Shown here: positions 3,001 to 3,635 of the stretch, piece after piece | Layout of the letters: the number at the start of each line of letters is the position of its first letter | Position numbering within the stretch: the stretch's first letter is position 1 | Assembly (NCBI RefSeq): GCF_003334255.1 | Contig: NZ_QOWU01000117.1 | Length of the DNA stretch: 3,635 nt | Origin: Escherichia coli | GTDB lineage: Bacteria; Pseudomonadota; Gammaproteobacteria; Enterobacterales; Enterobacteriaceae | Strand: one strand, 5' to 3' | Program-made: the position numbers

Positions 3001-3635
3001 AAAGAAGGTAACCACACCACGGCATACCGTGATGGTGCGGGGATCTGGACCATCTGCCGTGGTGCCATCATGGTGGATGGCAAACCTGTCGTCCCGGGCA
3101 TGAAGTTGTCGAAGGAAAAATGCGACCAGGTTAACGCCATTGAGCGTGATAAGGCGCTGGCATGGGTGGAGAAAAACATCAGAGTGCCACTGACTGAACC
3201 GCAGAAAGCGGGCATCGCGTCATTCTGTCCGTACAACATCGGGCCTTCGAAATGCTTCACCTCAACGTTTTACCGGAAACTGAACGCCGGAGACCGGAAA
3301 GGTGCATGTGCTGAAATCCGCCGATGGATATATGACGGCGGCAGGGACTGTCGGAATCGCTCAAATAACTGTTACGGGCAGGTATCGCGGCGTGACCAGG
3401 AGAGCGCGCTGGCGTGCTGGGGAATTGACAGATAAGCAGAATATTTTGCTGAAAAATGCGGTTTGCTCACACGGACGGATAACACGAAATCCTGCGAACT
3501 GACAAAAACTAAGTGAATAAAAGTAAAAACCCCGTTTGTTGGCTGCAAGCGGGGTTTTGTGTTTCTGACCTTGGATAAGGCAAGGGAGAACATGGAAAAG
3601 TATAAACGAATTCTGTTGAGGTTGACTATGAAAAA

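Follow-up and report, generated by a model that had tools for sequence, protein, structure and literature searches.

The stretch of Escherichia coli DNA analysed here (contig NZ_QOWU01000117.1; hereafter the window, 3,635 nucleotides (nt) in length) is the late region of a lambdoid prophage, and its last part, positions 3436-3635, follows R, the gene for the phage endolysin. An earlier reading of the DNA letters by themselves (the sequence-only reading) had pointed out that no spanin genes come directly after R, and had proposed that the spanins either lie further downstream, beyond an inserted gene, or are replaced by a different strategy of outer-membrane disruption. Across all its 3,635 nt the window is 99.4% identical to L001, a locus of the E. 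coli SCU-104 chromosome whose coordinates are higher by 5101 than those of the window, and its identity to the isolated phage PhiR12_3 is 98.7%. At this locus the order is S (the holin gene), R, a conserved trailer of 90 nt, a terminator hairpin, genes for two membrane proteins of 60 and 43 amino acids (aa), and Rz with Rz1 embedded in it. We consider it likely that the region after R is the start of a variable cargo slot, situated between R and Rz/Rz1 in the phage-21-type lysis cassette of a lambdoid E. coli prophage.

The two lysis genes contained in the window, both on the plus strand, were identified from the list of open reading frames (ORFs), PHROG matches and RefSeq annotation. The first (2682..2897), which has two in-frame starts (M1/M4), encodes a 71-aa S21-like class II holin of the pinholin type that matches PHROG 9876 and PHROG 20, both annotated as holin, and is named 'class II holin family protein' in RefSeq. 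The second, R (2902..3435, with a TAA stop codon at 3433-3435), encodes a 177-aa R21-like signal-anchor-release (SAR) endolysin, which matches PHROG 7 (endolysin, E = 1.8e-62) and is named 'lysozyme' in RefSeq. Its N-terminal segment is Gly/Ala-rich and weakly hydrophobic, with a hydropathy maximum at residues 11-27, and residues E35, D44 and T50, as read from the sequence, are what we take, by comparison with R21, to be the catalytic triad. An S21-like class II holin next to an endolysin with a SAR segment and an E-D-T triad is the composition of the pinholin/SAR-endolysin system of phage 21.

Spanin and cargo genes downstream of R

In L001, Rz (9029-9496), whose start is 593 nt beyond the stop codon of R, encodes a 155-aa i-spanin with an N-terminal transmembrane domain (TMD, residues 4-20), matching PF03245 (E = 8.5e-50 over residues 29-153) and PHROG 13 ('Rz-like spanin', E = 1.5e-75). 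Rz1 (9249-9434) encodes a 61-aa o-spanin lipoprotein with a VSAC lipobox at residues 17-20, a proline-rich mature part and a match to PHROG 3198 ('Rz-like spanin', E = 1.7e-31); its ORF is offset by 220 nt in the +1 frame and lies embedded at 0.47-0.87 of the length of Rz. Both components that define the embedded spanins of the lambda Rz/Rz1 family by sequence, the i-spanin and the o-spanin, are therefore found in L001, where the RefSeq order is lysozyme, two hypothetical proteins and 'lysis protein'. Spanins of the embedded architecture, classed in the lambda Rz family, are described for 933W, VT2-Sakai and related phages (PMC6139136), and the set of pinholin, SAR endolysin, Rz/Rz1 and SASA esterase is usual in Shiga toxin (Stx) phages (PMC8136144).

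The exact sequence of 3436-3635 was found in six loci, five of which extend far enough downstream, and in all five Rz/Rz1 starts 442-496 nt past the last R codon. Of the two options offered by the sequence-only reading, spanins beyond inserted genes is what we observed, with two small membrane-protein genes standing in front of Rz, and a different way of disrupting the outer membrane is refuted by the Rz/Rz1 pair in L001 and in all of these complete loci. The pair in the full locus points to outer-membrane disruption by an ordinary two-component spanin, as predicted from its genes. The remark that the only ORF overlapping the 3' end of R (3302-3502) lacks both a TMD and a lipobox was likewise confirmed (maximum Kyte-Doolittle score 0.94).

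The first cargo gene begins inside the window (3592..3635, plus strand) and is cut by the window's end. As had been read from the sequence, its ATG at 3592 is preceded by a Shine-Dalgarno (SD) sequence, AAGGGAG (3582..3588, plus strand), and the ORF opens MEKYKRILLRLTMK. The full gene (L001 8693-8875) encodes a 60-aa protein with a basic N-terminus and a C-terminal TMD (42-58), yet a second in-frame ATG at 3628, with its own well-spaced GAGG SD, is an equally plausible start and would give 48 aa; both forms are present in databases. That this gene might itself be an Rz-type i-spanin, the outcome that the sequence-only reading had set against its own proposal, is not what we found: the protein has 60 aa and a C-terminal TMD, matches no spanin family and no Pfam family, and falls into PHROGs of unknown function only (PHROG 1115, E = 1.4e-42, and further PHROGs 4493 and 3246). 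The second cargo gene (L001 8890-9021) is a 43-aa ORF with a single TMD (PHROG 4906, function unknown). Neither protein gave a match in Pfam, NCBIfam or PADLOC, and a cluster look-up, in which the 60-aa protein appeared on ~1,000 contigs, returned only the names 'hypothetical' or 'transmembrane protein'. The ratio of nonsynonymous to synonymous polymorphism (pN/pS) was 0.12 for the 60-aa ORF and 0.51 for the 43-aa ORF, next to 0.11 for R and 0.43 for Rz. Judging by these sequence features, the two are real coding genes for predicted inner-membrane proteins. The same two-gene cargo occurs in 1,038 of 5,426 complete E. coli genomes and in seven isolated phages, and the plaque-forming isolates PhiR12_3, PhiR12_4 and PhiR5_2 share the layout of the window.

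In an alignment of cargo junctions, the SD at 3582-3588 proved homologous to the SD region ahead of other cargo types. Of note, the homology of the SD/start region holds across cargo types despite differing proteins (window 3592-3635; L003 3185-3322; L005 3208-3360), and the first ORF of every cargo type has a basic N-terminal extension of ~12 residues, an internal Met with its own SD, and one TMD. By these features, a dual-start arrangement of the first cargo ORFs is possible.

We found no plus-strand sigma-70-like promoter in the window or in L001 7000-10000, and no promoter for the cargo inside the trailer, either by scan or by eye. Since only 33 nt separate the end of the hairpin stem from the ATG at 3592 and no promoter was found, the cargo would be expressed late and would not be a self-contained moron. 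The window's sole sigma-70-like match (TAGTCA-18-TATACT, minus strand, 3628-3599) points back through the cargo SD toward the hairpin; with one such site found and 2.9 expected, it is probably due to chance.

For a survey of the gap between R and Rz, 86 loci with an R homologue were available, and the 79 containing both R and the full Rz start formed its basis. The distance from the R stop to the Rz start ranged from 0 to 1,899 nt, falling into classes of 0, ~297, ~335, ~426-492, ~642, ~702, ~980-1,013, ~1,133-1,197 and 1,899 nt. What fills the gap is interchangeable, comprising several families of small single-TMD ORFs, two kinds of antirepressor-like genes and one methyltransferase; the pieces are shuffled among gap classes, with the 43-aa family usually standing directly before Rz. 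In L015, a 91%-identical R is joined straight to Rz (gap 0). The order in Sakai Sp10 is R, antirepressor, 48-aa ORF and Rz, and TL-2011c and an Stx2a phage have a gap of ~300 nt with one unannotated TMD ORF of ~45 aa. Because close relatives lack the cargo altogether (L015) or carry other sets, it appears dispensable for the core lysis pathway.

Two further observations concern the contents of the slot. The 1,899-nt gap of L014 holds a 255-aa DNA-methyltransferase-like ORF (positions 1115-1882 of the gap), together with a split antirepressor and small TMD ORFs. Within the gap classes of 642-703 nt (L050, L062, L066, L068, L076-L079, L082, L083 and L085), the small-ORF cargo itself is shuffled, with the last 38 residues of the 60-aa protein turning up again behind an ORF of the 43-aa family and with the families stacked in additional copies. 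This pattern of sequences suggests recombination within the cargo itself.

The trailer and hairpin behind R

The A-rich non-coding stretch of about 90 nt that had been described after R was borne out: the trailer (3436..3525, plus strand) is 90 nt long and 40% A, as against 26% A in the whole window. Alignments and diversity measurements divide it, along the plus strand, into a conserved box 1 (3436-3457), a variable spacer of 18 nt (3458-3475) and a conserved box 2 (3477-3501), and the alignments further show an invariant TAAGTGAATAAA (3510-3521) that places a stop codon in all three frames. Among 63 distinct loci, picked solely by similarity of the R protein, nucleotide diversity was 0.03 at 3436-3455 and 0.02-0.06 at 3476-3495, whereas the 4-fold sites of R gave 0.23 and the spacer (3456-3475) gave 0.26-0.30. 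The conservation of box 1 holds in an independent set of 105 sequences. In a further 120 loci, box 2 was placed 40-41 nt past an R-like stop codon 115 times, and in the remaining five the upstream ORF is truncated. The 156-nt intergenic sequence from R to the cargo is also widespread, occurring in 2,112 of 5,426 complete E. coli genomes (6,670 places), and its carriers include Stx phages and Sakai Sp10.

Two explanations of the trailer were tried and rejected: read-through past the R stop, as a TGA follows after 7 codons in many variants, and a mini-ORF, as its ATG at 3456 is ATA in other variants. Against the start region of each cassette gene (S, R, both small ORFs, Rz, Rz1), the boxes gave pairing energies no better than background. 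Folding the 3' region of R as a single sequence produced a long-range structure (z = -2.7). In the consensus fold of 20 relatives, however, its long-range stem was not retained; three local hairpins were kept, with no covariation and no compensatory change. The long-range structure of the 3' untranslated region (UTR) was thus seen in the single-sequence fold and not in the consensus.

This terminal hairpin (3526..3564, plus strand) was recognised by terminator scan, fold energy and alignment. Positions 3526-3539 pair with 3545-3558 around a loop at 3540-3544 and are followed by the tail UUUUGUGUUU; in the terms of the scan, a 14-pair stem (3526-3558) with 6 G-C pairs and a 5-nt loop ends in four U's and is followed by GTGTTTCTGA. 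The hairpin alone folds at -21.6 kcal/mol (z = -5.5), none of 200 shuffled sequences folded as well, and 13 of its stem pairs are kept in the consensus fold of the 20 relatives. A G+C-rich stem-loop directly before a U-rich tract is the form of an intrinsic terminator, so that the terminator which the sequence-only reading had placed at 3525-3564 is there in form; its designation as strong is an estimate only, since the U-tract is interrupted. Owing to the upstream A-tract, the hairpin also takes terminator form when read on the minus strand, with an uninterrupted T5 run and further T's (TTTTTACTTTTATT), and it is on this strand that it gives the sole Rfam signal in the interval between R and Rz, a weak, sub-threshold match of the rimP-leader terminator type. 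A type 2 hairpin was dropped as independent support for a terminator, its copy in Sakai being weak (z = -1.8) and failing the scan.

Late transcription and the readings weighed

All genes of the cassette, from S and R through the small ORFs to Rz/Rz1, share one strand, and no sigma-70 promoter was detected between them; the cargo is probably expressed from the late transcript only. A strong terminator-like hairpin is also found ahead of the lysis genes (2615-2643, 12 pairs, then TTTTTTATTT; site 2615-2652), between the DUF826 ORF and the holin gene, whose start comes 30 nt further on. As this hairpin lies inside the late operon, expression of S and R must depend on read-through, which fits an antitermination-dependent operon. 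Following established lambdoid biology, late transcription would start from pR' and be carried out by a Q-modified, terminator-resistant polymerase. During lytic growth, this polymerase would read through both hairpins (3526-3564 and 2615-2643), and a single late transcript would yield S, R, the two small genes and Rz/Rz1. The hairpins would stop only unmodified polymerase, insulating the downstream genes in the lysogen, and the one at 3526-3564 could also cap or protect the 3' end of a processed S-R mRNA. The all-frame stop block TAAGTGAATAAA would release ribosomes before the stem, leaving the stem free to fold.

Several points weigh against this account. The window ends at 3635, and the genes downstream of it were read from near-identical loci and not from the window's own genome. 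Both the Q-dependent read-through and the insulation by hairpins are inferred, not measured. The U-tract of the hairpin (UUUUGUGUUU) is interrupted after 4 U's, and its stem shows no double compensatory changes, only one-sided ones (G-C to G-U, U-G to U-A) or mismatches; in some relatives (TL-2011c) a mismatch in the stem causes the hairpin to fail the terminator scan, and loci with antirepressor-type cargo have a different, unrelated and weaker hairpin at the same position. Moreover, a cargo slot accounts neither for the two trailer boxes, which are far more conserved than the synonymous sites of R, nor for the role of the two small membrane proteins.

It is for the boxes that a small RNA (sRNA), already suggested in the sequence-only reading, comes into consideration. 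The trailer and hairpin (~3436-3564) could be released from the late mRNA as a stable, regulatory, 3'-UTR-derived sRNA of ~125-130 nt, either when transcription terminates or when RNase E cuts the mRNA and exonucleases trim it, with the boxes serving as seed or protein-binding regions. In favour of such an RNA, the diversity of the boxes (0.02-0.06) is far below that of the 4-fold sites of R (0.23) and of the spacer (~0.28), and box 1 is conserved in the independent set; the trailer always accompanies R, the terminal hairpin is stable and has a U-rich tail, and an AU↓AUU motif lies directly past the R stop. This motif fits the preference of RNase E and is also common by chance. Set against this, no Rfam family matched at E <= 10 over the lysis region or at gathering thresholds over the whole 16.7-kb locus, and the consensus fold shows neither covariation nor the long-range stem obtained from the single sequence. 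Only 4 U's of the tail run without interruption, and a Q-modified polymerase should terminate poorly at the hairpin. Neither the hairpin nor the box sequences were found by a full-text literature search, and a 2025 review of phage sRNAs lists nothing from the lambdoid lysis cassette. In the Hfq crosslinking screen (Hfq-CRAC) of enterohaemorrhagic E. coli (EHEC), no EcOnc Hfq peak falls between R (1944751-1945284) and ant (1945555-) of Sakai Sp10 (PMC4104026 Table S2), and EcOnc10, EcOnc11 and EcOnc12 of EHEC Sakai map after Rz, not after R (PMC4104026); this silence is weak evidence, because the cells screened were uninduced and any site within 100 bp of a coding sequence was filtered out (PMC4104026). 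All in all, we regard the release of such an sRNA as unlikely, and we put the chance that the trailer gives rise to any discrete functional RNA equally low.

The small membrane proteins raise a different question, namely whether they are accessory regulators of the pinholin/SAR-endolysin pathway, acting like an antiholin or a releasin, with the starts M1 and M13 giving two isoforms. Their genes belong to the lysis cassette and no separate promoter was found for them, the small ORFs are under purifying selection, all cargo-type first ORFs share one build (the basic ~12-residue extension, the internal Met and the one TMD), and both the 60-aa and the 48-aa forms are annotated. In phage Mu, moreover, a small membrane protein is reported to regulate the SAR endolysin (PMC9239132). 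Yet the proteins have no homology to characterised lysis regulators, matching only PHROGs of unknown function, with Pfam, NCBIfam and PADLOC empty; they are not required, being absent in L015 (gap 0) and replaced by other sets in other relatives; and the slot also houses antirepressors and a methyltransferase, which are unrelated to lysis. A regulatory role of this kind is conceivable but doubtful. Far less credible is that the first cargo ORF encodes a hydrophobic peptide resembling a type I toxin, held under a cis-antisense RNA that would start at the minus-strand site 3628-3599 and end at the minus-strand face of the hairpin. The promoter-like site does come shortly after the ATG, an uninterrupted T5 run with further T's does follow the hairpin on the minus strand, and similar hexamers occur in the related cargo of L005. 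However, the site matches the promoter consensus at 9/12 positions with an 18-nt spacer, one such site being fewer than chance would supply; its conservation is explained by its location inside coding sequence; no counterpart of it exists in other cargo types; and the gene stands in a late operon beside lysis genes rather than in a stand-alone toxin-antitoxin locus; we deem this reading very improbable. As for a phage without spanins that breaches the outer membrane in another way, the one point in its favour is that, within the window, R ends before any spanin gene has begun, and with Rz and its embedded Rz1 present in the 99.4%-identical L001 and in all complete loci with the identical tail, we consider it next to impossible.

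The cargo slot, with ordinary spanins behind it, is thus the reading we favour. A small likelihood remains assigned to a combination in which the boxes and hairpin define an RNA processed from the 3' UTR, or else a cis-acting RNA element of some other kind in the late transcript, and dual-start membrane proteins tune lysis. Were this true, some 40% of E. coli genomes would contain the RNA element, frequently more than once.

The remainder of the window lies upstream of the lysis genes. It contains most of a gene for a carbohydrate esterase of the SASA/nanS-p type (1-1953), a DUF1378 ORF (2095-2289) and the DUF826 ORF (2315-2605). At 1956-2036 (L001 7061-7137), directly past the esterase stop, an A8 run is followed by CCGCCAG...CTGGCGG, which on the minus strand reads as a hairpin and then T8, with a sub-threshold, Esr41-like Rfam match on that strand. 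EcOnc52, on the minus strand ~2 kb downstream of the Sp4 moron site, might be its counterpart, judging by distance alone. Outside the window, the same prophage carries known RNA elements at L001 332-530 and 4171-4849: isrK, the C4 antisense RNA with its a1/b1 targets and an adjoining ORF6N gene, and two tandem copies of the STnc100 sRNA, located in the known anti-sRNA/moron site, 1.4 kb of unannotated DNA that precedes the esterase gene.

Relation to known prophage systems

Prophage late regions are known sources of sRNAs, with the known anti-sRNAs lying upstream of the esterase gene and not after R. Like the 3'-UTR-derived Hfq sRNAs of the CpxQ/SroC type and the EHEC prophage sRNAs AgvB, AsxR and StxS, the trailer has conserved 3'-UTR blocks and a terminal hairpin with a U-tail; unlike them, it is known from its sequence alone, belongs to no Rfam family and has no Hfq-CRAC peak at the homologous site. 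The cargo, for its part, resembles the lambdoid morons bor, lom and stx in consisting of non-essential, interchangeable genes interposed among conserved late genes, with a terminator-like hairpin at their border. Classic morons have a promoter of their own and a downstream terminator. Here, by contrast, the hairpin lies upstream of the cargo and no plus-strand sigma-70-like site was detected.

The lysis genes themselves correspond to the S-R-Rz/Rz1 cassette of phage 21 and lambda: an S21-type holin, an R21-type SAR endolysin and a +1-frame embedded Rz1, all on one strand of the late region. What differs is that R and Rz are set apart by the trailer, the hairpin and the two small membrane-protein genes, the contiguous R-Rz form existing in the relative L015. 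The architecture is not new, as the annotations of Stx phages and thousands of E. coli genomes already show it. A caution follows for the annotation of phage-21-type cassettes in E. coli, in that the absence of Rz/Rz1 directly after R does not mean a phage without spanins: the junction of R and Rz is a common cargo slot, and the spanins lie 0.3-1.9 kb further on.

The closest likeness is to the lambdoid prophages of Stx phages and EHEC (Sakai Sp10, TL-2011c and the 933W group), which share with this locus the nanS-p-like esterase, DUF1378, DUF826, S, R, the trailer (85-96% identical), a cargo and Rz/Rz1, as well as the 43-aa ORF family directly before Rz. They differ in the cargo: Sp10 has an antirepressor, along with a different and weaker hairpin, and TL-2011c and Stx2a phages have a single TMD ORF of ~45 aa, whereas the present locus has the pair of 60 and 43 aa and no stx gene nearby. 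In those Stx phages that share the trailer, the small membrane proteins or the trailer boxes could bear on the timing of lysis, and hence on the release of toxin.

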